Below are positions 20,004 through 61,946 of a stretch of DNA of 64,000 nt, piece after piece. The stretch comes from a virus (Duplodnaviria > Heunggongvirae > Uroviricota > Caudoviricetes). The stretch lies in the IMG/VR virus record IMGVR_UViG_3300029887_000004; one strand, written 5' to 3'. How positions within the stretch are numbered: the first letter of the stretch is position 1; every line of letters starts with the position of its first letter. The notes under the pieces were generated by a model. That model did not search any database. It was not told where the DNA came from and saw only the letters and a list, made by a program, of their open reading frames with translations. Both the position numbers and the translations under genes were made by a program.

Positions 20004-20900
20004 CTATCGAGCAATGTCACATTCATGGAAGTCTAATAACATCTGATATTTATATTCTCCAAAACGTTCTTTCCATCTGTGTTTTGCTTTCTCTGTATTC
20101 CAACCAAATGGCATCATGTGGTAATTAACTAGAAAACACATATCCAGAAATTCGTCGCTAGATAAATCATAAAATGTATCATGTAGCTCTGATAAGATTA
20201 AATACGCAGAATATTCAGCATGACCAAAGTAATGAGCAACCCCATTTTCATCAAAGCTTTGTGTATATAATTTTCCAACGTCATGGTAAAAGGCAGCTAA
20301 TCCAAAATATTCTGGATAATTATATTTTTTAAATAACCGCATAGTATAATCGCAATGTCCGCCTAATGTTTTATTATGATATGGTGTCTTTTGATCAAAT
20401 TCATTCATAAAATTAATTACGTTGATCATATTTGCCCTATAATGAAGATTTTCAATTATAATTTTATCGAGTCCTTCTCCTTTGAACGGAATTTGAAATC
20501 TTCTAATTTGATTATCTAATACAAATTCCGGAACAGGATGTTCTCTATTCTTATTATCTTGTCTACATACCAAGATATGTTTTGGAATAATATAACAAAT
20601 CTTCTCAACATCCAAGTTTCCTACATTCTGCAAAATTGCTCTACGGCTTTTCATCGTAAGATTGGTTGCGTCTGCTATTACATTTTTATTATTCTCCAGG
20701 TTCTCACGAATTCTTTTGTGAAATACCTTGAATACTTCATCATTTCGATCCTGATTTTCATAATCACCAGTTAATTCTTCTCTAATTTGATCGGAAGAAA
20801 CAATAACTGTATTTTCATGCTCTTGTGCTAATTTCTGAGCGATTGTAGACTTTCCAGATCCACTCAGCCCGCACATAATCCAAAGTGTAGGTTTATTCAT
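20004..20900 (-). CDS. polynucleotide kinase (P-loop) fused to HD-domain phosphohydrolase, an RNA end-healing enzyme
   Basis: N-terminal GLSGSGKST with a DAT lid, C-terminal HD motifs (YHDVGK, GHAEYSAYL). ATGA overlap with the ligase gene. Confidence 0.65.
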   Translation of the reverse strand: MNKPTLWIMCGLSGSGKSTIAQKLAQEHENTVIVSSDQIREELTGDYENQDRNDEVFKVFHKRIRENLENNKNVIADATNLTMKSRRAILQNVGNLDVEKICYIIPKHILVCRQDNKNREHPVPEFVLDNQIRRFQIPFKGEGLDKIIIENLHYRANMINVINFMNEFDQKTPYHNKTLGGHCDYTMRLFKKYNYPEYFGLAAFYHDVGKLYTQSFDENGVAHYFGHAEYSAYLILSELHDTFYDLSSDEFLDMCFLVNYHMMPFGWNTEKAKHRWKERFGEYKYQMLLDFHECDIAR

Positions 20901-22186
20901 TCGTCCTCCTGTGTAAAAATGTCGGCATAATTTGATACACCCATATCATTTAATTTTAAATATTTGGGATTACCGCCCTCATGACTCTTAATAACATTGA
21001 TTGATTTTCCAAAATACAAACTTTTACAATATTGTCTGTATTTTTTCGGTATATTTCGATCGATCCAAATCATAAAATCTTTCTTACTATCTTTCGGTGC
21101 CTGATTATAATATTCTCTAATTGTCTTTTCGGTTTTCTCGATATAATCAAACACAATAAATGCGATTCTTTTTACATTATCATGGTAAGCAATAGGAAGT
21201 TTTGAAAGAAGATCATCGTATGTATCATCTGCGATACAACGAATAATAAGATTAATAGAAGACAACTTAGACAATGCTTTATGAATGTGAACATAGTCAT
21301 TGTATTTTAGCTTTACTTTATAATCATCAATATTGATTACAAATCCTTCCGCTTCATCAGATGATTTATCATCTAATTCACTCATAACTGTATCTAGTGT
21401 TTTGTCAAATACTTCAGTCGTAAGAATGTCATACTGTTTAGCAACAGCTAGTACTGTTTTGTAATCCGCTTCTATGCCAAGTGCATTGCTTCTTATTCCA
21501 ATAAGGTATAATCCCTCTTGCTCTTTGGTATATTTAACAACATGTGCATCTTTTAATGAAATATATTCAAAAATAAAAGTATGGTGTTCGAAATCTTTTA
21601 ACATCTTTTCATATCCTGGTAATGCTCGAATCATTCTATACCCATCCTGCAATCTCCAAGAATTTTCAGGATTAATAGTCTGACTACCAGCCATAACAAT
21701 TTCTCCGTTATACCACGTAGCAGACTGCATCGATCCATCCAATTTATTTGAGAATTCAACAGTATGAGCCATACTGATTCTTTTTTGAATATTCTTCAAG
21801 CTCGTTTCTGCGATCTCGTTAATATTAAAAAACTTTCGGAACGGGCATAGAACAATACAATCATTCACTACATCAATAACAATGCTCCTACATTCACGAT
21901 AAAATCCATTATATCTTTCCCAAATATCTTCACCTGAATTTTCAATTTCTCCATCGTAAATATTGCTATATCTTCCATATCTCAAAAGAAGAAAATTGTT
22001 ATGCTGATTTAATTCTAAACAAGAAAGTAAGTCTGTATATTCTGAGTATTGATTACATTGTTTTATGCTATTTAATTCATCGATCCATCTTTCCAGACAT
22101 GTTTTTGATTCATCTGTATATCCTTCTGTATAGTCATATGCGATATTGCTGAATCGTTTTTTTATACTCATTTTTGATTTCAACAA
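20897..22186 (-). CDS. RNA ligase (nucleotidyltransferase motif I KxDGS)
   Basis: EFSNKLDGSMQSA (KxDG), 429 aa, translationally coupled to the Pnk-HD gene. Gene pair resembles T4 pnk/rnl. Confidence 0.6.
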   Translation of the reverse strand: MLKSKMSIKKRFSNIAYDYTEGYTDESKTCLERWIDELNSIKQCNQYSEYTDLLSCLELNQHNNFLLLRYGRYSNIYDGEIENSGEDIWERYNGFYRECRSIVIDVVNDCIVLCPFRKFFNINEIAETSLKNIQKRISMAHTVEFSNKLDGSMQSATWYNGEIVMAGSQTINPENSWRLQDGYRMIRALPGYEKMLKDFEHHTFIFEYISLKDAHVVKYTKEQEGLYLIGIRSNALGIEADYKTVLAVAKQYDILTTEVFDKTLDTVMSELDDKSSDEAEGFVINIDDYKVKLKYNDYVHIHKALSKLSSINLIIRCIADDTYDDLLSKLPIAYHDNVKRIAFIVFDYIEKTEKTIREYYNQAPKDSKKDFMIWIDRNIPKKYRQYCKSLYFGKSINVIKSHEGGNPKYLKLNDMGVSNYADIFTQEDE

Positions 22187-23537: not shown

Positions 23538-23540
23538 CTA

Positions 23541-24569
23541 TCAAATTTCATCCTTTACAACTCTTTCATTTACACTCATCACAAATTCATTGATTTTGTC
23601 ATAGTTAGGTCTTTCTGGCAAAGAAGTATTTTTCTTATCGTACTCAAGCCTTTTATCCAGCACATCAACCATCTCAAAGAATTCTGGGATTGGTTGATTA
23701 CTGCTATCTAAGTATTCTCCATTACGAATATTCATTAACAGGTCATGTTCTTTTTCTCGATAGGTAACTACTTTTTCATTCTCCAGAATGTCAAAACACA
23801 TATAATATAACCGCACTAAATGCATCATGTGTTTATTCAATTTATTCGAAGGTACAGCCTGCCTATTCGTTATACTAAGCTTCGCATAGTCTTTTACGAT
23901 ACTATGCATTTCAGCCCACATCGCCTGGTAATCTCGTAATGGATAATGTTTCAGGTTGACATCCATGAAAATTTCCTTATCCATATCTTCTTGGGTAGCG
24001 TCATCGAGATATAGTTTGATGCTATTTTCTGAATATCTAAAATATTTTTCTGGGAATGATGTCATTGCATTATAGATACTATTTAAGACATGATTTTCTC
24101 GATGTTCCTGATCGACTGTACGAACTGCTTTGTTGTCGATTCTTCGCGCTTGTGATCGAATAAATCCTTGGAAGCTATATGCTGCTTTTTTAGAAAGAAA
24201 TAAATGTGAATTATCTAATAGCTCGTATCCAATCGAGCTGACATATAAATAATGTTCTAGATTTAAACCCAGCAGCTCGATAGTGTTTGGGTTACAATTT
24301 GATAACAGCTTGATAATCTTATTAAACCCGTAGATTGTCGTATCTGTCTGCTTATTTTCAAACTGTTCAAATCGCTCGTTCGTCAAAATTTCTGCTTTAG
24401 TATTTAGTGCAATTCCGCGCACGTCTAGGTCGCTGGTTTCTACATTAGTGCCATATGAATAGCTACCACCTAATCCAAGAAGAATAATTCTATTTTCTAA
24501 ATGTTTGTCCGTCCTCAGAAAATCATACTCTTCTCCAGCAATCTTCTTTTTGATTTCTTCAATCGTCAT
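23541..24569 (-). CDS. Pol-beta-superfamily nucleotidyltransferase (GS...D.D motif)
   Basis: GLGGSYSYGTNVETSDLDVRGIA is the minimal NTase signature. The substrate is unknown; the gene lies inside the RNA-repair neighbourhood. Confidence 0.55.
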   Translation of the reverse strand: MTIEEIKKKIAGEEYDFLRTDKHLENRIILLGLGGSYSYGTNVETSDLDVRGIALNTKAEILTNERFEQFENKQTDTTIYGFNKIIKLLSNCNPNTIELLGLNLEHYLYVSSIGYELLDNSHLFLSKKAAYSFQGFIRSQARRIDNKAVRTVDQEHRENHVLNSIYNAMTSFPEKYFRYSENSIKLYLDDATQEDMDKEIFMDVNLKHYPLRDYQAMWAEMHSIVKDYAKLSITNRQAVPSNKLNKHMMHLVRLYYMCFDILENEKVVTYREKEHDLLMNIRNGEYLDSSNQPIPEFFEMVDVLDKRLEYDKKNTSLPERPNYDKINEFVMSVNERVVKDEI

Positions 24570-34688: not shown

Positions 34689-35585
34689 TTATTCATTCTC
34701 TGTCACAATTCGCCTAAACATCTCATCTGTAGAATCTATCAGATCATATCTTTTATCCATTGGCGCTGTTGAACTTTTTGCAAATTTTCTTTCTACCATG
34801 TCAATATAGTAAGTAAAATTGCCATCATCGCCCATGTAAAATTCTTCCCATTCTTTGTCCGTAAAGAAACGTCGCATATTAAGCTGTTCGATGGCTAGAT
34901 TGTCAAATGACACAACTTTGAATTTGTCGTAAATGTTACAGATGTTCTCTTTCAACCACATCTGTCTTACTACAATATTTTCATGATCTTCTGTATACCA
35001 ATCAGTCCCTCTACGGAGCTGCTTATAGCCCAGGATCAGCATCTTCAGATTATTATTCTGTAATGCTTCAATATCTGATGGTTTTAAAATTCCATTAATA
35101 ACATGGAGTACTACATTTGGATACTGCTTTATCATGGAGATGAATTTTTCCGTTGGATTGACAAGTGATACACCAAGACCGTAGATCAGTTTTTCATTAA
35201 CTAATCTTTTTATCAGATCCTGTTTTTGTTCAAAATGAATCTGATTTACAGTAATATTCGCAATTACTTTTCGTTCTTTAAGTTTTTGTAGGAATGGAAT
35301 TACATCAGGATGTGTAGTGATATCACCGCCACCGATTGCTACCTCCTGATATGGATGTAAAGTATCAATAAACTTTTCGTTCATAATATCTCCATGTCTG
35401 CCATTTTCCGTACTTCCTTCATGACACATAGGACAATTTCGATCGCAACAATTTGTTATTTTGATATCCATATTTTCTGCAAAATCCGGAATAAACTCAT
35501 CATCATTTGTTTTTCTGATCTTTGTCCCATCGCTCAATATAAGAGTACGATAATTGCCATTTTTATAAGCTCCTAATAATTCCAT
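34689..35585 (-). CDS. radical SAM domain protein (CxxxCxxC)
   Basis: NCCDRNCPMCH gives a Cx3Cx2C motif, with a glycine-rich GGGD segment after it. Confidence 0.6.
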   Translation of the reverse strand: MELLGAYKNGNYRTLILSDGTKIRKTNDDEFIPDFAENMDIKITNCCDRNCPMCHEGSTENGRHGDIMNEKFIDTLHPYQEVAIGGGDITTHPDVIPFLQKLKERKVIANITVNQIHFEQKQDLIKRLVNEKLIYGLGVSLVNPTEKFISMIKQYPNVVLHVINGILKPSDIEALQNNNLKMLILGYKQLRRGTDWYTEDHENIVVRQMWLKENICNIYDKFKVVSFDNLAIEQLNMRRFFTDKEWEEFYMGDDGNFTYYIDMVERKFAKSSTAPMDKRYDLIDSTDEMFRRIVTENE

Positions 35586-37398: not shown

Positions 37399-38880
37399 TC
37401 ATGATATCAAATTATTAAAGTTATTTTGGATTGTTGATTCTACGGCATTGTTTCGTGCTTTGTACTCCCAAATAAAACCTCGACATGATTTTTGTCTATG
37501 TGCACAACATGCTTGTATATTTGTATGTGCTATCATAAAAAAATTTGCTGCTTCGGTTATGCTGCTCCATTCTTTAATAATATTTCCATTTTTATCTTTT
37601 TGATAAACTGCTTTTGCTGATGTTTTATTTGGAGAAGATGCCCATTTAATTGCATCTTCTATGTTCAAATTATCATCGTCATGTGCCCATGCATATCCAC
37701 CAGCTGTTTTACAATGTCTTTTACAGCAGTCTGAAATTTGACCATATGAAATTCCTGTCCTTCTATGTGCTTCTTTCAAGCTTTCATATCTAGCAACAAT
37801 AGTCCTCGTATTGATATCAATTTGAACAACTTTTCTTTTTGGTACAAGTTTATGTTTGATCTGATATTCGTTCTTTATATCTTGTGATGTAAAAATAAAA
37901 TTTTTATTTGTGATATTATTTTCAAAAATTTCTTGATAAAATTTTTCAAATATTTGTTCCTTTACATTAAAATTTGTATATTTAATTAATAAAAGTGGTA
38001 TTTGGTTTTTATTACAATATGATGTCTTTATCTCATCCTTATGTTTTCTATCTTGAAAATTTTCTTCTTTTACTAAATCAGATTCTCCACAAAACGTAAA
38101 TGGAGTATAATGTTGTTGGCCTTGTAATTCAATTAAAAACATTAGCTCTTTATTGACTGGATGGAATATAGCAAAATCAAAAGGAAGACGTTCTTTATCT
38201 TTACAATCTTCAAATTTATACTGGGATATATACTGTATGTTCTTCTGCTGAATATATTTTTCTAGTTCATATTCTGCTGCAGATATAAGACATCCACATG
38301 ATTTTTTATGCCCAGAACATAGTTCAGATGTACATGCAATACAAGTATTTTCACATTCACATTTACAATACCAATACTGTTTCCCGTCTTTTATAAACGC
38401 TCTTTTATATGGCGTTAATTTTCCAAAATGCTGATTTGTTATATCTTTTGCTAAAATTTTTCTCATTTTTTCAGTTCTAACACAACCACAACTTGTTGTA
38501 TGTCCCGATCTTAAATGTGTATCTGTGACATTTACAATATTTCCACAATCACATATACATTCCCATATAACTTTTGTTGAACCATTTGGTTGCATTTTAT
38601 TCTCTAAACGACTTAATACTACTAATCTTCCAAATCTTTGTCCGACTTTTGTACCAGTCTCTTGTTGATTTGGTTTGCAGTTTTCACAATATTGATAATT
38701 ATTATTACGAACTTTATATGCATTAAGTTCTTTAATATTTCCACAATTTATACATTCGCATACATAGTATGGTTTTGATTGTCCACTTGGTGTTATTCTG
38801 CTCTCTGCCATTCCTATAATTCTATAACACCCATATATCATTCCAATTTTATCTTTTGATTTGTTTCTAATATTTAGCAC
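37399..38880 (-). CDS. homing endonuclease: N-terminal zinc fingers, Vsr/DUF559-like nuclease core (FDFAIF...LIELQGQQH), two C-terminal NUMOD/IENR-type DNA-binding repeats
   Basis: Tandem C-terminal repeats IVARYESLKEAHRRTGISYGQISDCCK and IIKEWSSITEAANFFMIAHTNIQACCAHR. The gene is immediately adjacent to the disrupted pncB. Confidence 0.6.
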   Translation of the reverse strand: MLNIRNKSKDKIGMIYGCYRIIGMAESRITPSGQSKPYYVCECINCGNIKELNAYKVRNNNYQYCENCKPNQQETGTKVGQRFGRLVVLSRLENKMQPNGSTKVIWECICDCGNIVNVTDTHLRSGHTTSCGCVRTEKMRKILAKDITNQHFGKLTPYKRAFIKDGKQYWYCKCECENTCIACTSELCSGHKKSCGCLISAAEYELEKYIQQKNIQYISQYKFEDCKDKERLPFDFAIFHPVNKELMFLIELQGQQHYTPFTFCGESDLVKEENFQDRKHKDEIKTSYCNKNQIPLLLIKYTNFNVKEQIFEKFYQEIFENNITNKNFIFTSQDIKNEYQIKHKLVPKRKVVQIDINTRTIVARYESLKEAHRRTGISYGQISDCCKRHCKTAGGYAWAHDDDNLNIEDAIKWASSPNKTSAKAVYQKDKNGNIIKEWSSITEAANFFMIAHTNIQACCAHRQKSCRGFIWEYKARNNAVESTIQNNFNNLIS

Positions 38881-38891
38881 CTCTTTTTATT

Positions 38892-40133
38892 TTAATTATT
38901 TTTTCTTTCATGTTCCATTCTCCAATCGATACATCTCTGCAGATAATCAACGTATTCTGGATTTTTACACATGCATTTACCCATATCATCACTGATCTTA
39001 GCTACATCCTGTCCATTTGCAACAGTTACTTTCATAACAATGTTAAGTGGTGATACTTCTGTATCATTGGATAAGTATGTTCCGATGCCAAATGCAACAT
39101 TTGTTCTTCCATTAAACACTCTAAAAATCTCATCGGCTTTTTCAAAATTTAAAGAATCAGAAAACAGCAGAGTTTTTGTTCTTGGATCAATACCAAGACT
39201 CTGATAATGATCAATCATCTTCTGCCCTCATTCAATCGGATCTCCAGAATCATGACGTACACCAGAAAATAATGTGGCGTATGTGAGCTGGAAATCTTTA
39301 AGAAAACAATCTGTTGTAATTGTATCAGTTAATGCGATGCCGTTAAGAACTCCATATTCTTTGATCCAGGCATTCAATGCATACCAATTTGAATATGCTG
39401 GATTATGTTTATGATTTCCCTGACCTACACACATAATCCATTCGTGTGCCATTGTTCCAACCGGTGTTACACCGTATTTTTTGGCCAGATACACATTGGA
39501 CGTTCCAATGAATTTTGAAGCAGAATGCATTGTATCATTTAGGTGAGAAAACTTTTCCACAACCATTTCCTGGGCTTCTGCAGATAATCTTCTACGAAGA
39601 CCAAACTCCGAAAATGTTCCTGCATACCAATTTCCATATTTCAGTTTGTTGAATTTCTCATCAAGACGTTTTTCAAAGCTTTCAAGAAGCTCGTCATAGT
39701 TGTACTTCATACGGAAATATACTTCATTTACAATTGCAAGAACAGGAATCTCATACATAGAAGTATTGAGCCATGTACCTGCTGTTTCAATACTAAGTCC
39801 GCATTCTGCATCATTTGAAATCGTAAAATCTTCAAAACGTGGCTGCCAAAGTCTTAAGAAGTCAACGTAGGAACCTTTGATCCATTTGATACTATTGAGA
39901 CAAATCAGCTCCTCTTCTGTAAACCGAAGATTGCAGTATGCTTTAACCTGTTCTGTAATTTCGTCTACCATATCTGTAGTAAAATATACATCTTTGTTTC
40001 GACATTTGAATGTCCAAGTCGTTTTATAATCCGAGAACTGATGATAAATTGCCTGACCCATACTGTACTTATATAAATCATTAGACAGTAGACTTGTAAT
40101 AATCTGATCTAATTTCATATCTCTATTCTCCAA
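38892..40133 (-). pseudogene. pncB: nicotinate phosphoribosyltransferase (PncB) interrupted by a single in-frame TGA at 39228-39230, at the conserved DPxEW position
   Basis: The two track ORFs (301 aa and 108 aa) are collinear and in the same frame: ...RHDSGDPIE-TGA-GQKMIDHYQSLGIDP...FGIGT. E. coli PncB has W at this point ([13 protein letters not shown]). Other tryptophans in the gene are TGG. Confidence 0.6.
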
Positions 40134-40632
40134 TCACATTAATCTGGCAACTTCTCATAACTTCGAGTGCTGCTTTATGTTTCTCAGGTGTCGATCCAGC
40201 ACAGCAGCTGGCATCTACTGTAATTTCTGTTTTTGGAAACACTGCTCTTAAAATCAATGCATTTGAAATCACACAGATATTCGTCGTTAAACCGACTAAC
40301 TCAATATCACCTCTAACCCATCCCAATGTAATCCATTGCAAAGTTCCAAAACAATCTTTATTTACATACATGCAGTTAGGAACTTCAAGTCCATCTACAA
40401 TCTTCCAGCCTTTTGAACCGTAAATACAATGTTTTACTGGAAGTTTTCTTCCTTCCTGAGTATTCAAATAATCGTCATAATGCGTATCTCTTGTAAAGAT
40501 AATTTGATCTCCACGATTGTAATACTCCTCAATTTTCTTTTTTACATTCGGAATGATCGCCTGTGCTTCTTCCGATCCAAGGCTCCCATTTACGAAATCA
40601 TTCTGCACATCTACTACAATTAAAGTTCTCAT
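40123..40632 (-). CDS. pncA: nicotinamidase / pyrazinamidase (isochorismatase family)
   Basis: LIVVDVQNDF together with the catalytic-Cys context TNICV. 169 aa. Confidence 0.7.
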   Translation of the reverse strand: MRTLIVVDVQNDFVNGSLGSEEAQAIIPNVKKKIEEYYNRGDQIIFTRDTHYDDYLNTQEGRKLPVKHCIYGSKGWKIVDGLEVPNCMYVNKDCFGTLQWITLGWVRGDIELVGLTTNICVISNALILRAVFPKTEITVDASCCAGSTPEKHKAALEVMRSCQINVIGE

Positions 40633-43721: not shown

Positions 43722-44768
43722 TTACTCTACTTTGCTCTCTGTTTCCTCCATCTTATTGGTTGTTTCTTCTTTTACATTATTCTCCGGACTTTCTTCTTTA
43801 TTATTTTCACCAACTACATTTGCTTTTTCTGGTTCTTTATTTTCCTTTGTATCTTCTGTAGTATTCTCTGCATCAGAAAGCAGTTTTTCAACCTTTTTTA
43901 CGATTTCTTTTGTTGATTCGGTCTGTTTTTCTTCCTCTTCTTTTTTAGATTCGAGTTTCTTTTTCTCTTCTTCAAACTCCATCATTGCCTGAAGATATGC
44001 TTCTTTCTGAATTGCAATCTGTTCATTTCTTCTCTCTTCTTCTTTTTTAGTTGCTTCTTCTGCTCTTCTTGCACGACGTCGTTCATTTCTCTCATGACGT
44101 TTCTGTTTCTGACGAAGTTTAATTTCTTCCTCTTCTTTGTCTAATGCGGCGAGCTTCTGCTGACATTCATATACTTTCAGAGCATTCTTGACTTTGGATA
44201 CATAAGATTTTGCATATTTAAACTCATAAGCTTTCTTCTCAATACCTTCTGACGTATACACGTCATTATATTGTCGTTTTGCATATGCGATGTATAATGC
44301 TCTTTCAAGAGAGAATGTATCATTTTTGTCGCATACTGTTTTTACTTTTGCTTTCGTCCAAAGATCATCATTGAAAGTCACTTCCACCACTCGATTTGGT
44401 ACAATAATATTGACAGAGCATACACCCGACTTATAGATATACTCTTCCATTTTGTTTTCAATACGTTCCCTCTGTGTTAATCCTACTTCCTGTTTTCTCA
44501 TTTCTTTGTTCTCCTTTTTAGCATTGAATGTAAATGTATCATTTTTATTTCCTGAGTCAGAGTTTGCAACAACTTTTTCAAGACACTTTTCTTCAAATAT
44601 AAAATCAGCACCGCAATTTAACCTATATGCACTACAATCAGAATACAATGTTATTTCAGTTATGATATATTTATGCCCACAGTAACATTTCATACTTGGC
44701 ACAAAAGTAGAACAATCAATGTCTTTATAATCCTTAACTCTTACAATATCTCCTACTTTGAAACTCAT
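43722..44768 (-). CDS. hypothetical protein with Lys/Glu-rich C-terminal low-complexity tail
   Basis: 348-aa ORF. The upstream gene ends in a tandem TGA-TGA. Confidence 0.55.
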   Translation of the reverse strand: MSFKVGDIVRVKDYKDIDCSTFVPSMKCYCGHKYIITEITLYSDCSAYRLNCGADFIFEEKCLEKVVANSDSGNKNDTFTFNAKKENKEMRKQEVGLTQRERIENKMEEYIYKSGVCSVNIIVPNRVVEVTFNDDLWTKAKVKTVCDKNDTFSLERALYIAYAKRQYNDVYTSEGIEKKAYEFKYAKSYVSKVKNALKVYECQQKLAALDKEEEEIKLRQKQKRHERNERRRARRAEEATKKEEERRNEQIAIQKEAYLQAMMEFEEEKKKLESKKEEEEKQTESTKEIVKKVEKLLSDAENTTEDTKENKEPEKANVVGENNKEESPENNVKEETTNKMEETESKVE

Positions 44769-44774
44769 ATTTCA

Positions 44775-45227
44775 TCACGCCTCCACTTCTTTTGATAATT
44801 CTTTATACTCTTCCAGAAGCTTTGCAAATTTTGAATTCGTTTCTGCAAAAATCTCATATTTTTTATCATCTTTTGTTGACTGAATAATATCATCCATCAT
44901 TTGTCTTAACTGATGTTTTTTATATTGTATTTTTGCTAATTCCTTTCGTCTTTTCTCTCGATCTTCGTAAGCTGTCATGTCAATAGCACCTGGGTCGATT
45001 TTACAAACAATTTCCTGCGTGATTTTTTCGTTTTCATGAAAATGTTTCATATCATCCAATGTAAGAATATTTTGAATTGTTAAAATTTGACCTCTACGAT
45101 AACCAGTAACTAATACCTTATCTCCCTTTTCGTATTTATAGCCGTCGTTATAAATTGCAAAATATTCTTCCTTCCCCATAAGATTAATTCCTGCTACGGC
45201 TATATAGCCTGTTAATTCTTTTGCCAT
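44775..45227 (-). CDS. hypothetical protein
   Basis: 150-aa ORF. Confidence 0.5.
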   Translation of the reverse strand: MAKELTGYIAVAGINLMGKEEYFAIYNDGYKYEKGDKVLVTGYRRGQILTIQNILTLDDMKHFHENEKITQEIVCKIDPGAIDMTAYEDREKRRKELAKIQYKKHQLRQMMDDIIQSTKDDKKYEIFAETNSKFAKLLEEYKELSKEVEA

Positions 45228-45428
45228 GTTTTATTCCTTCTTATGTTTATATATTTTCTAAAGAAATGTGCCTTTCATCTCGTTTTATATTTCAGTCATG
45301 CGATTTGAAATGCCTAAAAATGGATGGACGGCGTATCCATCATCTCAGGTACTCTTTGCAGAGTGCGTCGGGAACCATTTCCAACCTCATTTTTAGACAT
45401 GTTAAATCGCATGACCTACTATTCTCCG

Positions 45429-45584
45429 TTAATATATTCCGAAAAAGCTATACACTAGCTCAACCACAGTAGTTACAATAATAGTGATCCATAAAGCCTT
45501 TTCACTTTTTCGTTCTGGCTTCTCTTCAATTAGATTTAACCAGGCGAAGATAATTAGAATGATTCTTAGGATTGTAAGTAGCAT
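45429..45584 (-). CDS. small membrane protein (51 aa)
   Basis: RBS AGAGGTGA. Reads MLLTILRIILIIFAWLNL.... Lies 24 nt downstream of the iscB stop. Confidence 0.4.
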   Translation of the reverse strand: MLLTILRIILIIFAWLNLIEEKPERKSEKALWITIIVTTVVELVYSFFGIY

Positions 45585-45607
45585 GTTTTTCACCTCTTTT
45601 CTTTTAT

Positions 45608-47155
45608 TTATACAGCCATTCCTTCTTGATCCGTATGGGTCGCTTCGTACTCTAGACGATTATATTTTCTCCAAATCATTCCACGCCTTGTTCTTACAAT
45701 TTTTACTTTGTCTAATAAATTACTCTTTAGTAATTCATATTCTTCTTGTTTTATATTTATAGAAGGGTATTTGACTGTTTGTGCTTTATATGTAAATCGT
45801 ATTTTGAAATTACCATTAGGTAGTTTTTGCATGGATTCTACTTCTGCGATATTTCCTTTATGCTTTCCACTATTTATGTAAATTAAATCTCCACATTTCA
45901 AACAATATGAATTACAAACAAAAGTGCGTTTACCAGGTTTAATTTTCTTACCACGAAATTGTCTCATATTGTTTATATATTCTTTTTGCGTGACTCGTTT
46001 AGACGGAGCATTTGGAAGCCTTTCCTTATATAATGTATTACCACTTTTTTCTTTTCCATCACGTACATCTATGTATTTTGCATCACTAAATGTCTCCATG
46101 CTCCTGTCATTGCATCGTTTTTGATCTACAATATAGATATTCTCCGTTAATGTCACATCCTTGTAATCATTAATACAAACAGCATCCGTATAATGAAATT
46201 TTCTTAAACCGGTATTCCTTCTATTAATTTTTGTTTGATATCCATACCCAACTTTGACGTCATATTTGCCAGAAAGCCTTTCAAAAAGTTCCCAACGAAC
46301 CATATTCATATAAGTACTGTCTTTGTATGTATCCGATAACTTCATACTCTTGACTTTCTCAAAATATTTATTGTCGTTATTATTGGAATGCACCTTCCGA
46401 TGACAACTATGACATAAAGATATTAGATTACTTGGTTTATCGGTTCCTCCCTTTGAACGCGGTTGGATATGATGAACTTCAATCACAACATTTTTATTTG
46501 CGCCACACAACCGACATGTATGTTTATCTCTATCTCTAACATAAGCTGCTGCATTTTCATATCCTTTCATTTCTCCATTTTGATAATCTTTTCCTGATAT
46601 TTCTTTCCCGTCAGCTAAAGCTTTTATCATCTGGATATCAAATTTAGCAACTTCTACAATTACCTTATCTACTGGAATCCATGACGCAATTTTATCTATT
46701 AAACGAATATGTGAATCAATTTTATGTTGTATTGATGGAGCAAACCATCCTTCTTCATTTCCATTTTTATATGTTGGATTATGTATAGTTTTGTAGTCAA
46801 TGTTCTTATTTTTTCTATACCTAATTCTGGATCTTCTCGTTCTTCTATATCCATTTCGATTTGTTAATCTATCCGACATTCCTTTTAATAATTCGACTTG
46901 TCCAGCTAAATACTCATGATAATTATCACTGACAGAAAATCCTATGTTCAAATATCCACTATCAATTTTTAATTCGAAAATATCTCTATTTTCAAAATCG
47001 CTTTGATAATCGTCTATTCGTTTTATTACTAATGGATCATGATTAATGATTTTTGCTTTATTATTTCTAAGCAAATAACCAGCTCTACCGTTTGAAATCG
47101 GTACACACGGTTTATCATTTTTATCTACTACTAAAGTAAAATCTAAATATTCCAT
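45608..47155 (-). CDS. iscB: IscB (OMEGA) RNA-guided nuclease, Cas9 ancestor: PLMP-like domain, RuvC-I, Arg-rich bridge helix, RuvC-II, HNH, RuvC-III
   Basis: N-terminus KPCVPISNGRAGYLLRNNKAKII...PLVIKR (PLMP domain); RuvC-I ELKIDSGYLNIGFSV; bridge helix RTRRSRIRYRKNKN; RuvC-II IVEVAKFD; HNH CRLCGAN...EVHHIQPRSKGGTDKPSNLISLCHSCHRKVH; RuvC-III HYTDAVCIN. 515 aa. Confidence 0.85.
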   Translation of the reverse strand: MEYLDFTLVVDKNDKPCVPISNGRAGYLLRNNKAKIINHDPLVIKRIDDYQSDFENRDIFELKIDSGYLNIGFSVSDNYHEYLAGQVELLKGMSDRLTNRNGYRRTRRSRIRYRKNKNIDYKTIHNPTYKNGNEEGWFAPSIQHKIDSHIRLIDKIASWIPVDKVIVEVAKFDIQMIKALADGKEISGKDYQNGEMKGYENAAAYVRDRDKHTCRLCGANKNVVIEVHHIQPRSKGGTDKPSNLISLCHSCHRKVHSNNNDNKYFEKVKSMKLSDTYKDSTYMNMVRWELFERLSGKYDVKVGYGYQTKINRRNTGLRKFHYTDAVCINDYKDVTLTENIYIVDQKRCNDRSMETFSDAKYIDVRDGKEKSGNTLYKERLPNAPSKRVTQKEYINNMRQFRGKKIKPGKRTFVCNSYCLKCGDLIYINSGKHKGNIAEVESMQKLPNGNFKIRFTYKAQTVKYPSINIKQEEYELLKSNLLDKVKIVRTRRGMIWRKYNRLEYEATHTDQEGMAV

Positions 47156-48632: not shown

Positions 48633-49061
48633 TTACACTGCGTTTCCTTTCCCAACAAGAAAGTTTTCGAAATCTCGTTTCATGAATCTGAAATTAATAC
48701 CCTGATTGGAACTATATTCATCATCTGCATTCTGATATTCTCCAATCCACTGTTCAAATTCCTGATCCTGATTATTCTGCGCTGCATAAACCATCAATGC
48801 AATTAACGCTGTTTTACACTGCTGATAAACATTTGCAGACACTTTTGTATCCTGAAGACACTCGTTGTAAAATTCGATGTCGTCTGGATCTACTTTCTCA
48901 TTTACATGAGTATGTACAAAATCAATATCATTCTGATCAATACGATCATCAACACCAATGATTGCAGATTCTTCACCCTCTGAATTTTCTGATGAGTCTT
49001 TGATACTTTCGCTCTCTGCATCTTCATTTGGTTTATTCTCTTTAATATGTAAAAAATCCAC
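48633..49061 (-). CDS. hypothetical acidic protein
   Basis: 142-aa ORF. Confidence 0.5.
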   Translation of the reverse strand: MDFLHIKENKPNEDAESESIKDSSENSEGEESAIIGVDDRIDQNDIDFVHTHVNEKVDPDDIEFYNECLQDTKVSANVYQQCKTALIALMVYAAQNNQDQEFEQWIGEYQNADDEYSSNQGINFRFMKRDFENFLVGKGNAV

Positions 49062-49080: not shown

Positions 49081-50136
49081 TCAATCTTCTGCTGAATTAC
49101 TTTTTTTGTCCTTCGTGTGTTTATCCTGTTCTATTTCAATCCAATCAGTATCATTGACTTTGATTTCTTTCATGTCATTAAATGCAATCAGGAATTTTCC
49201 AAAATTTTCTGGTGAAACTCCTTCATCTAAGGCTCTTTTCATAAGAGTCATCCATGCCATAAAATCTTTTGACACAAATAATTCAGCTACTTCTGTATGA
49301 TCGAGTTTATCTGCGTAAGGAATTAACATATTAAAGTATTTGTTCAGTGTATCAAATTCTTCTTCTGTTCCGTTCTCATTAAGATACTTGCAGATATCCC
49401 TTGGCGCCTTTTTCCATTCTTCTAAATGAAACATCGCCATAACGCATTCGATGATCACTCTTTCCCAGATGCCTTTTTTCTTGTCTAACTCATTCAGCAT
49501 CGTACAATCTTTAAGAAAACGATTATTATCTTTAATCCGTTTAATTTTATCCGCAAATGTACCAATGTAAGTAAACGCCTTCTGGCTTACATTCATTGGA
49601 ATAGTAGAGTTATATAACATGACAAGATCGCAGGTATCTTCTGGAGTACATTCCTGATAAATTGCAGCAGACAACTGACATGATCTCATTCTCTTTTTCA
49701 GTTCTGGTGGGAAATCATTATAAGTTTTATTAACCAGATCAAATGTTTTGATTTCTTTGATCAGTTTTCCATTTTCATCTCTCATAGGTTTTCCATTTTT
49801 ATCCAGTTTGTTTCCTTGATAAGTCACATATCTATTCCGGATTGATTTAGAGATCTTATGCCCATCAAACACAAAACGTCTGAGCGCTTCTGTTCTCTGA
49901 CCACCATCCACTACGTATGTAGTAGTAAGCCCATCTTCTCTTTTTTCTTCTGCAAGAATAATGTTGGGAATGTAAATCCGTTTTGGAGATACAGTACTAT
50001 AAATCAAATTATTGATCATTTCATTTGACCAACAAAACGCTCTCTGGACTGCCTGATCAACAGTAATAACTTCCTCATCAATACTATCAACATAAGCTCC
50101 TACGCCCATCTGTTCGATTCTGTATTCATCTAACAT
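49081..50136 (-). CDS. DUF262 (ParB-like nuclease superfamily, DGQQR motif) protein
   Basis: VVDGGQRTEAL, the motif found in GmrSD/DndB-type N-terminal domains. Confidence 0.5.
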   Translation of the reverse strand: MLDEYRIEQMGVGAYVDSIDEEVITVDQAVQRAFCWSNEMINNLIYSTVSPKRIYIPNIILAEEKREDGLTTTYVVDGGQRTEALRRFVFDGHKISKSIRNRYVTYQGNKLDKNGKPMRDENGKLIKEIKTFDLVNKTYNDFPPELKKRMRSCQLSAAIYQECTPEDTCDLVMLYNSTIPMNVSQKAFTYIGTFADKIKRIKDNNRFLKDCTMLNELDKKKGIWERVIIECVMAMFHLEEWKKAPRDICKYLNENGTEEEFDTLNKYFNMLIPYADKLDHTEVAELFVSKDFMAWMTLMKRALDEGVSPENFGKFLIAFNDMKEIKVNDTDWIEIEQDKHTKDKKSNSAED

Positions 50137-53892: not shown

Positions 53893-54426
53893 TTACCTTT
53901 CTAAATATTTTGTTGGTACTTCTTTAGTTAACCAAACATTATTCACAGACAAATAAAATTTATATCCATCTCTATGCATCTGACCAGATGCCACCTGATA
54001 CACAATTTCTTTTCCGTGTCTTTGTCCGACTTTTTCTGCAGTATCAACGTCACTTGAAAGATGAACATATAACCGGCTTTTTGGAATTAACCCAATCTGA
54101 TCGATTGACACTACGTATTTTTCGCCAGTTCCATGATATAAAAATTCTGGTGGCTGTTTCTCTTCTAATTCTACATCTACAGGAATCGAATGTCCTTGGT
54201 TGCATCTGATCAGTGTTTTATCTTCATTAAAAGAGTATCTTCCCTTCGAATCTGTTTCTACTATCTCGTACAGATGATCCAGATCGAATCCAGGATTGTC
54301 TTTCCTAATCCCGTCAATCAGTTCGACGACATTAGCCCACCCATGTTCATCCAAAGTAATGCCAATTGCTTCTGGTTTATGTCTGAGAATTAAACACATG
54401 TATTTACTAATATTTTCTAAGTTCAT
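53893..54426 (-). CDS. kptA: RNA 2'-phosphotransferase Tpt1/KptA
   Basis: ISKYMCLILRHKPEAIGITLDEHGW...HGTGEKYVVSIDQIGLIPKSRLYVHL is the KptA/Tpt1 family signature. Confidence 0.75.
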   Translation of the reverse strand: MNLENISKYMCLILRHKPEAIGITLDEHGWANVVELIDGIRKDNPGFDLDHLYEIVETDSKGRYSFNEDKTLIRCNQGHSIPVDVELEEKQPPEFLYHGTGEKYVVSIDQIGLIPKSRLYVHLSSDVDTAEKVGQRHGKEIVYQVASGQMHRDGYKFYLSVNNVWLTKEVPTKYLER

Positions 54427-57015: not shown

Positions 57016-57369
57016 TCATTTCTTCTGCTCGTCAATTAAATCCAATACTTCGCATAAAGCCTTATATCTGCCTTCTTCTAAGTCATTCATATTGCGATTT
57101 TTTGTTTCATTTTCTAAATCCTCAATAAGCTGCTCGATTTTAATTCTTAATTCGTCCACTGTTATACCTCCAATTCTCTTTCTAATCTCTTCGTTACTTG
57201 AACACTTCTGCAACTGATTTATTGAAACATGTCGCTGTTCAATATAACCATCTTCCATTTCAAAATCAACATCTGCTTCCTCGTTTGGATTTTCCCATGC
57301 ATAATCTACAAATATTCCAAACAATTTTAAATTTTTGTGAAACACTTTATCACCTTTTTTAAATTTCAT
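57016..57369 (-). CDS. hypothetical protein, tandem paralog (shared C-terminal motif RIKIEQLIEDxENxxxNRNMNDLExGxY...LDLxDE)
   Basis: Shares a ~45-aa C-terminal domain with the gene at 57370..57678. Confidence 0.5.
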   Translation of the reverse strand: MKFKKGDKVFHKNLKLFGIFVDYAWENPNEEADVDFEMEDGYIEQRHVSINQLQKCSSNEEIRKRIGGITVDELRIKIEQLIEDLENETKNRNMNDLEEGRYKALCEVLDLIDEQKK

Positions 57370-59894: not shown

Positions 59895-61946
59895 CTATGC
59901 AGTTTCACCCAACAAAATTTTTCTAAACAGGCTTTCAAAAATCGGAACACAAATACTATTGCCAGCCTGTTTATATAATGCCATTCTATATCTTCCTCGT
60001 TTCTGTTGGACAGATGCAGCTGCTTCATAATCCTGATCCGTATATCCCATAAGTCGCCAGCATTCTCTTTCTGTAAGATATCTGTATTTTCCATTATGTA
60101 AGTCAATTACCTGTGCAGGTGTCCGATCCTGGCGAGTCGTGATTGTATAAGCATATTGGTCAATTACGGTTGCTCTTCTAATTCCGGATGCTCCAATACA
60201 TTCCAGAATGCTCGGTTGTGTTACCTCATATACTGGATCAACTTTCTGTTCCAAAAACTCATGAATGTTTCTCATTGGCGTTCTAATCAGATCAGAAAAA
60301 TCAAATTCCTTTCCTTTTAAACAACTTACAGTGAAATAGCGTTCTCTTGCTTGCGGGATACCAAACTCTCTTGCGTCTAATAGTTCATATGTACTTGTAT
60401 ATCCAAGTTTACTTAATTCTTCCATATATCTGTCGTGATTATGCACCATATATTTACTTCTGACATTTTTGACATTTTCCCAAATCACATATTTTGGTTT
60501 CCATTCTCCCATCTGTTTAATAATATTAATTGTTTCCCACATAAGACTCGATCTTGTCCCAGACCCTTCTTCTGCGCCAGCTCCATGATTTGTTCTTCCA
60601 TTTCCAGTAGCTGTGCCTTGATGTCCAGCAATAGACATATCCTGGCAATTATGCACTATACATCCATTTGCCGTATAAGAATGAGCCTCTTCCACTTCTA
60701 TATCATAAACAGTTTCTTTGTTTTCTGTATGTTCAATTTTTGTTATTGGAGACCATAAATATCCATCTTCAATAATTGACATTCTTCTATTGCACTTTAA
60801 AGTCCATCGTATTGTATATGTGTCTTTTTGATGAATCTTTCTTCCTTCTATACATCCAAATTCTTGACGTTTAAATTTACTTATTTGAAACGGTATATTA
60901 TATGCTTTCACAATCAACTGCCCAATTCCATATAATAGTTTCCTATTAACTGAAGTTATAGAATATGTATATTTTTTACATGATCCATCACTATCAACAT
61001 AACCCTCTATTAATTTCCTCACGAGATTAATTGGCATATCAAATACAAATCCAGGTAAATATTTACCTTCAGCACCTTTTCCAAATAGATTGCAAAAAGT
61101 AGCTAATTCTTTATTTGTAAATTGATATTTATATGTCGTATTGTCTTCGACTTTTACGTAATGTGCCCATTCTGGTATTTTTTCTTCAAATAGTTTATCT
61201 TCGCCATTTATTTTTGATGTACATATAATCATGCTAGAAACATTATTGTTTCTGTCTTTCCTCGTTCTTGTCCATCCGTCACCTAAAAATCTTCCTATCA
61301 AATACCATAATCCTTCGTCTTTCATGTTCAGATTATTTTTAATATATTTAGATCTTCCCCTTGTACACTCAACACCATCCCATTTGGGGACAATTGAATT
61401 TTGATTTATTGGGGTTCCGACCAAATAATTTTTATTTAGATCTTTAGCTTCGACCCATTTTGGTTCCGAAAATTTTCTTTTCATCGTCTTCTTCCCATCA
61501 ATAAATGGGTGAATATATGTCTTTTCTCTTACATAAAATTTATGATTGCTAGTAGTTTTTATTTCATGACAATTAGATGCTTTTAGTTTTATAATATTTT
61601 TTTCGCCATTGTTGAATACATTAATTACTTTGTGAAATAAACCATCATGAGAAACAACTTCTTCATTAACGGAAACATCTTTTATTTCTCTAAAACCATT
61701 TTTAGTCAATACTAATGTATCTCCTGTAAAACATGGACTTCCATGTATCAAAATATCTGGACGAAGATTGTATCCGACCACTGTTTGTGTTTTATAGTGA
61801 AGATCTTTTGCGAACATTGCATTGTATGATCTAACCGCTGCTTCGTCAATCTCGACATAATCAATTGATTTAACAGGAATACCGATATTCCGTAATGCAC
61901 ACCGTGGGCTTCCAATTCCACCGAATAATTCTAAAATTTGTACCAT
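59895..61946 (-). CDS. dcm: DNA (cytosine-5)-methyltransferase interrupted by a 362-aa intein carrying a LAGLIDADG homing endonuclease
   Basis: Extein motifs: I LFGGIGS, IV GSP|CQDMS, VI IWENVKNV, VIII GIPQARERYF. The intein runs from CFTGDTLVLT to ...GCIVHN, then the +1 Cys (residues 72-433, DNA 60648..61733). Two LAGLIDADG motifs, LIGRFLGDGW and LIEGYVDSDGS. The insertion sits exactly at the catalytic PC|Q. Confidence 0.8.
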   Translation of the reverse strand: MVQILELFGGIGSPRCALRNIGIPVKSIDYVEIDEAAVRSYNAMFAKDLHYKTQTVVGYNLRPDILIHGSPCFTGDTLVLTKNGFREIKDVSVNEEVVSHDGLFHKVINVFNNGEKNIIKLKASNCHEIKTTSNHKFYVREKTYIHPFIDGKKTMKRKFSEPKWVEAKDLNKNYLVGTPINQNSIVPKWDGVECTRGRSKYIKNNLNMKDEGLWYLIGRFLGDGWTRTRKDRNNNVSSMIICTSKINGEDKLFEEKIPEWAHYVKVEDNTTYKYQFTNKELATFCNLFGKGAEGKYLPGFVFDMPINLVRKLIEGYVDSDGSCKKYTYSITSVNRKLLYGIGQLIVKAYNIPFQISKFKRQEFGCIEGRKIHQKDTYTIRWTLKCNRRMSIIEDGYLWSPITKIEHTENKETVYDIEVEEAHSYTANGCIVHNCQDMSIAGHQGTATGNGRTNHGAGAEEGSGTRSSLMWETINIIKQMGEWKPKYVIWENVKNVRSKYMVHNHDRYMEELSKLGYTSTYELLDAREFGIPQARERYFTVSCLKGKEFDFSDLIRTPMRNIHEFLEQKVDPVYEVTQPSILECIGASGIRRATVIDQYAYTITTRQDRTPAQVIDLHNGKYRYLTERECWRLMGYTDQDYEAAASVQQKRGRYRMALYKQAGNSICVPIFESLFRKILLGETA

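Follow-up and report, generated by a model that had tools for sequence, protein, structure and literature searches.

A very young in-frame TGA at an invariant tryptophan codon interrupts the pncB gene of a large phage

The DNA analyzed here, referred to throughout as the window, is a 64,000-nucleotide stretch of the Caudoviricetes record IMGVR_UViG_3300029887_000004, with a G+C content of 33% and essentially all of its genes on the minus strand. It encodes replication proteins (a RecJ-like exonuclease, a primase, a DnaB-like helicase, and a Sak4-like protein), an integrase, and several mobile nucleases of the HNH, NUMOD, and LAGLIDADG types. The source is a large phage of about 150–200 kb that apparently infects gut bacteria and probably has its host among the Lachnospiraceae. 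The window also carries a set of RNA-repair-type genes, all on the minus strand: a P-loop kinase gene (AAA_33; 20004–20900), an RNA ligase-like gene (20897–22186), a RlaP-family nucleotidyltransferase gene (23541–24569), and a Tpt1/KptA RNA 2'-phosphotransferase gene (53893–54426). These genes may constitute a tRNA-repair counter-defense set.

Positions 38892–40118 of the minus strand encode pncB, a nicotinate phosphoribosyltransferase (NAPRTase) gene of 408 sense codons followed by TAA and interrupted at codon 297, counting from the ATG at 40118. The minus-strand translation of 38892–40133 reads ...VRHDSGDPIE*GQKMIDHYQSLGIDP... and contains one internal stop, the in-frame TGA at 39230..39228, which stands in place of a Trp297 codon that is TGG in relatives wherever it was read. 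Two ORFs were called across the gene: one of 301 aa with a TTG start (39228–40133) and one of 108 aa (38892–39218, minus strand), which begins at the ancestral Met301 and carries the conserved FGIGT segment. The ATG at 40118 is the more likely pncB start, rather than the TTG, and termination at the TGA would be expected to yield an N-terminal fragment of 296 aa (39231–40118, minus strand). The G-to-A change that makes the stop also makes a GAGG Shine–Dalgarno-like motif (39226–39229, minus strand) out of what is GGGG in the intact allele.

Immediately upstream of pncB lies a pncA-like nicotinamidase gene of the isochorismatase family (40123–40632, minus strand; Pfam Isochorismatase, E = 2e-25). 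Its TAG stop (40123–40125) is 4 nt ahead of the pncB ATG, and it overlaps solely the alternative TTG-start ORF. A pncA homolog likewise precedes pncB in 65 of the best 80 related phage contigs. On the other side, 12 nt downstream of pncB, is a free-standing homing-endonuclease-like gene of 493 aa with NUMOD1, I-HmuI NUMOD-like, and DUF2726 matches (37399–38880, minus strand); among the best 80 more distant relatives, just 10 have the endonuclease gene.

The original prediction held that the two ORFs are parts of one collinear, in-frame NAPRTase, and the homology searches bore this out. With codon 297 read as W, the pncB product matched Pfam NAPRTase_N (PF17767; 91 bits, residues 11–131) and NAPRTase (PF04095; 223 bits, residues 169–395), both over their gathering cut-offs, and the latter was a single match running across the junction. 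The solved structures 1yir_A (E = 3e-90, query 4–398) and 3os4_A (E = 5e-81) aligned with the product end to end, each with W opposite the pncB stop, and further structure matches were obtained to 1vlp, 4hl7, 2im5, and 1ybe. This collinear homology across the TGA, rather than chance, establishes that the two NAPRTase ORFs are a single interrupted pncB. In alignment A1, W297, G298, M301, and F343–T347 were all invariant. The remaining nine W codons of pncB are all TGG, as had been predicted, and the junction peptide of a W-decoded product would read ...HDSGDPIEWGQK.

By its domains and its homology to solved structures, the gene qualifies as a bona fide member of the PncB family, and the TGA allele falls short in its uninterrupted frame alone. 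It shares full-length collinear homology with bacterial PncB/NAPRTase (EC 6.3.4.21; PF17767 and PF04095; 1yir, 3os4, and 1vlp), and the conserved HDSGDP-x-x-W, GTMAHEW, and FGIGT segments are common to the phage gene and the family. Unlike bacterial PncB, it is phage-encoded, lies beside pncA and a homing-endonuclease gene, and has a premature TGA at W297 in one strain. An uninterrupted full-length frame is absent from the window and from at least seven other assemblies, and is present in sibling strains.

Tryptophan was found at the interrupted position in every homolog checked. Among the best 80 IMG/VR phage relatives, which share about 80% identity and lie mostly on contigs of 90–200 kb, codon 297 specified W in 80/80, with TGG at 77/77 codons read directly. 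The best 80 GTDB matches gave W in 80/80 and TGG at 78/78 codons read directly; these were overwhelmingly from Lachnospiraceae (among them Agathobacter, Roseburia, Butyrivibrio, and Eubacterium) at 72–83% identity, and the closest cellular PncB homologs, at 74–83% identity, also belonged to Lachnospiraceae genomes. For phage and bacterial homologs combined, W was present in 160/160 checked and TGG at 155/155 codons read, which upholds the proposal that the TGA replaces a conserved tryptophan.

Same-species relatives were traced by exact-protein look-ups in public assemblies. Among the proteins clustered at 90% identity, intact 408-aa alleles were in the majority. One of them (P0122) equals the window protein once codon 297 specifies W; it was read in 24 contigs, with 30 index blocks listing it, and two other intact 408-aa alleles were found in 14 contigs (P0123) and in 4–5 contigs (P0001). 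Truncated alleles (P0121 and P0126) accounted for about 5–10 contigs. All 15 intact same-species contigs that were fetched carried TGGGGG at the site, and their pncB differed from that of the window at just 2–3 of 1227 nt, namely the synonymous C636T, the stop-generating G891A, and occasionally one more. The TGA haplotype and the commonest intact haplotype were 2 of 1227 nt apart in pncB, with the protein otherwise identical, in agreement with the original suggestion of a very recent TGG-to-TGA nonsense mutation.

The interrupted allele itself recurred in public data. The 296-aa N-terminal product was called as a gene in 9 public contigs and the 108-aa C-terminal ORF as a separate gene in 10, and the identical TGA was present in independent assemblies of at least seven runs or assemblies (ERR912186, ERZ28564001, ERR6121421, ERR4334145, SRR35963710, ERR14020145, and SRR35966936). 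All TGA contigs read GAATGAGGGCAG at the site. An exact scan of IMG/VR, GTDB genomes, and JGI metagenomes with a 38-nt stop-site pattern returned zero matches. Over stretches of up to 6.9 kb, the TGA contigs shared 99.98–100% identity with the window, and this near-total identity indicates that they form one clone. One of them (L083) showed no difference from the window between 38015 and about 41200 but departed from it by about 3.5% farther upstream, a pattern that identifies it as a recombinant upstream of about 41200. Within pncB, the TGA clade showed 0–1 substitutions; the sole one seen, V220G in L088, hits an invariant residue, and intact alleles carry singleton replacements too. Neighboring run accessions hold both alleles (ERR4334145 versus ERR4330073; ERR14020145 versus ERR14020728), and this accession proximity, the sole basis for the statement, suggests that intact and broken pncB alleles co-circulate. 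Taken together, these comparisons show, at the level of sequence, that the pncB stop is real, derived, very young, and polymorphic within the phage species.

pncB and the endonuclease gene lie together in a block of low diversity delimited by sliding-window divergence (37500–40100). Among 14 strain contigs, the block was 0–1% divergent, with flanks at 1–16%, mostly 3–9%. This profile looks like the product of a recent sweep or gene conversion, possibly through homing with co-conversion of pncB.

Several other loci in the window vary among the sibling strains. An A7 run at 49101–49107, which is A6 in siblings, splits a 500-aa GmrSD_N-like protein into parts of 351 and 142 aa (gene halves at 49081–50136 and 48633–49061, minus strand). 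Public records hold this frameshifted protein from 6 contigs, which indicates a real, strain-specific change and no error of the window. A 515-aa RRXRR and HNH (IscB-like) ORF (45608–47155, minus strand) lies upstream of a 'skipping-rope' RNA (Rfam RF02924; 71 bits, E = 3e-15; 45315–45395, minus strand), the RNA being about 210 nt downstream of the ORF. In some sibling strains the IscB-like ORF is swapped for a TnpB-like gene (Cas12f1-like_TNB), and in others a deletion (window 44180–46556) brings its N-terminal portion together with the 348-aa gene at 43722–44768 in a 347-aa chimera. The radical-SAM-like gene of 298 aa (34689–35585, minus strand) is intein-free in the window. In several siblings its product is 678 aa long and includes a LAGLIDADG insertion at the corresponding site, which makes the locus polymorphic for an intein or homing element. 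A DNA methyltransferase of 683 aa (59895–61946, minus strand) has an intein-like insertion; its PHROG matches are split, and its ortholog in the contig L186 matches both Pfam Intein_splicing and DNA_methylase.

Beside a nonsense mutation, the original prediction had offered a sequencing or assembly error and a functional read-through of UGA; the first is refuted and the second has found no support. In favor of an artifact hiding a true TGG codon, the site falls where the intact allele has a run of Gs (TGGGGG), and on some platforms such stretches are error-prone. However, the change is a substitution and not an altered homopolymer length, and the same base appears in at least seven runs that were assembled separately in different projects, each time in linkage with the synonymous marker C636. 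Recurrence of the TGA across that many independent runs excludes an assembly or sequencing error for practical purposes, and we regard an artifact as highly improbable. Under functional, selected read-through, decoding of the UGA as Trp would proceed at a useful rate, through the tRNA-Trp of the host or a suppressor tRNA that the phage encodes beyond the window, and would provide a tuned or conditional supply of PncB. Among bacterial stop codons UGA is the leakiest, and the predicted near-cognate decoding by tRNA-Trp would indeed restore exactly the native residue, given the W opposite the stop in homologs. The frame downstream of the TGA is intact, and several independent samples, as well as one recombinant background, have kept the allele. 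Against this reading, the in-frame TGA is limited to one clonal lineage and is not conserved among relatives, with W in the other strains as well as in all 160 homologs. When the minus strand of the window is divided into stop-to-stop segments, roughly 92 of them span at least 80 codons, and about 25 of these end in TGA; the tandem stops described earlier, TGATGA at 44772–44777 and TGATAG at 23538–23543, are both present. When TGA was treated as a sense codon, few real genes were lengthened, and most long ORFs have no internal TGA; code 4, or any window-wide stop reassignment, was rejected on these grounds, as the prediction had anticipated. Across the 64 kb, pncB alone had a TGA inside the gene at a conserved site. 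A TGA also joins two sizeable ORFs in frame at 57018, 55844, 29167, 27162, and 63671, and these five pairs were considered as recoded genes but taken to be separate genes, since in each the second ORF starts afresh shortly, within a few codons, after the stop and shows no continuity with the first. ARAGORN and Rfam detected no suppressor tRNA (anticodon UCA) in the window, which covers 64 kb of a genome of roughly 150 kb and in which tRNA-Met(CAT) and tRNA-Leu(CAA) were the only tRNAs found; none was found in six sibling loci, and a different, 98% identical strain reached from a window-end ORF yielded no tRNAs. The minimum free energy of the 141 nt around the stop was −30.3 kcal/mol, and shuffled sequences averaged −30.5 (z = 0.06); the fold is thus no better than that of shuffles, and there is no sign of a SECIS-like or stimulatory hairpin at the stop. 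The G that follows the UGA is, in E. coli, not the leakiest context. With a single clonal lineage, no second recoded gene, and neither a suppressor tRNA nor a structure in the window, read-through is unsupported, and we consider it quite unlikely. Large gut phages have been described with TGA recoded to Trp or TAG recoded to Gln and with phage suppressor tRNAs, and the source resembles them as a large, apparently gut-associated phage in which an in-frame TGA occupies the place of a Trp codon. Unlike those phages, it shows one such site in 64 kb, which is not conserved even within the species, it has about 25 genes for which TGA serves as the ordinary stop, and its window is devoid of a suppressor tRNA. 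Decoding of the UGA as selenocysteine, for which the in-frame UGA codon itself is the one point in favor, is vanishingly unlikely: the homologous residue is an invariant Trp, a hairpin directly 3' of the UGA does not rise above shuffle expectation, and sibling strains have TGG.

A further reading is that the mutation produced a two-piece enzyme, in which termination at the UGA would be followed by re-initiation three codons on, at ATG301, by way of the GAGG motif, and the 296- and 108-aa fragments would assemble non-covalently into an active protein. The change from GGGG to GAGG, made by the mutation itself, lies 7 nt upstream of the ancestral Met301 codon, and GGAG, GAGG, or AGGA cores at comparable spacing precede 29 of the 43 genes scanned in the window; the 108-aa ORF was also predicted by gene callers in every assembly. 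Yet the cut falls inside the catalytic domain, the fragments are without the invariant W297 and G298, and there has been no evolutionary time for selection on a split form to show. The split form occurs in no homolog, which also speaks against the genuinely two-subunit enzyme that the original prediction had named as its counter-case. An AlphaFold2 model of the pncB product, built on an 18-sequence alignment, had a mean pLDDT of 48.7 and is too poor to place the cut in the fold. We consider an active two-piece enzyme quite unlikely. Less likely still is that the TGA allele is a maintained low-expression or conditional variant that tunes NAD salvage, through host-dependent misreading of UGA as Trp or through two re-initiated fragments. 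The repeated sampling of the TGA lineage, in several projects and once as a recombinant, implies that it is not quickly purged, which also fits an allele that is still functional. The 111 codons downstream of the TGA are intact, but this is uninformative on selection because the lineage is nearly mutation-free.

The explanation we favor, and hold to be probable, is that a nonsense polymorphism of recent origin has inactivated, or greatly lowered the output of, the accessory phage gene pncB. One G-to-A transition in one clonal strain would have turned the invariant Trp297 codon, the TGG of TGGGGG, into TGA. Ribosomes would be expected to terminate at codon 297 in most rounds, leaving a product of 296 aa from which the final quarter of the catalytic domain, and with it the conserved FGIGT segment, is missing; to judge from family conservation, this product is presumably inactive. 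A small, basal amount of full-length wild-type PncB is expected from near-cognate reading of the UGA by tRNA-Trp, and there is no sign that selection or programming lies behind such a leak. The TGA allele would then represent a naturally occurring knock-out, or a strong hypomorph, of an accessory gene that the phage can do without. Loss of pncB would be tolerated because the host family has a closely related pncB of its own: the closest cellular PncB proteins come from Lachnospiraceae, which implies that the host probably has its own copy. That the same strain bears a second reproducible disruption of an accessory gene, the A6-to-A7 change in the GmrSD_N-like gene, makes it plausible that the loss is tolerated. 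The event is of an ordinary kind, in which a premature stop segregates in an auxiliary gene of a phage. The pncB allele shares with natural nonsense polymorphisms and pseudogenes of phage accessory genes the single-nucleotide stop, its segregation within a species, and the host redundancy of the gene, and nothing of substance sets it apart from them.

In its intact form, the pncA–pncB pair would convert nicotinamide to nicotinate and then to nicotinate mononucleotide (NaMN). Nicotinamide is a product of NADase defense systems, and a counter-defense role for the pair is a conjecture. Like NARP1–3, pncA–pncB would be a phage-borne, two-gene salvage route to NAD precursors that starts from nicotinamide. 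According to the NARP3 paper (PMC13464706), the described pathways comprise Adps and Namat (NARP1), Nampt and Nmnat (NARP2), and PnuC and NadR (NARP3), and PncA and PncB go unmentioned there. The pncA–pncB gene content differs from every described NARP pathway, and the pair alone would reach just NaMN, with host NadD and NadE needed for the remaining steps. A literature search for PncA/PncB as a phage NAD+ counter-defense found nothing among NARP1–3. The genes at 40123–40632 and 38892–40118 thus form a Preiss–Handler-type nicotinamide salvage pair outside the described NARP1–3.

For annotation, these results mean that both NAPRTase ORFs should be treated as one disrupted gene and that the site is no evidence for an alternative genetic code. 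For the biology of the phage, the existence of near-isogenic strains that differ in whether pncB is intact or broken could provide a natural experiment on the role of PncA–PncB in infection, for example against NAD+-depleting defense.
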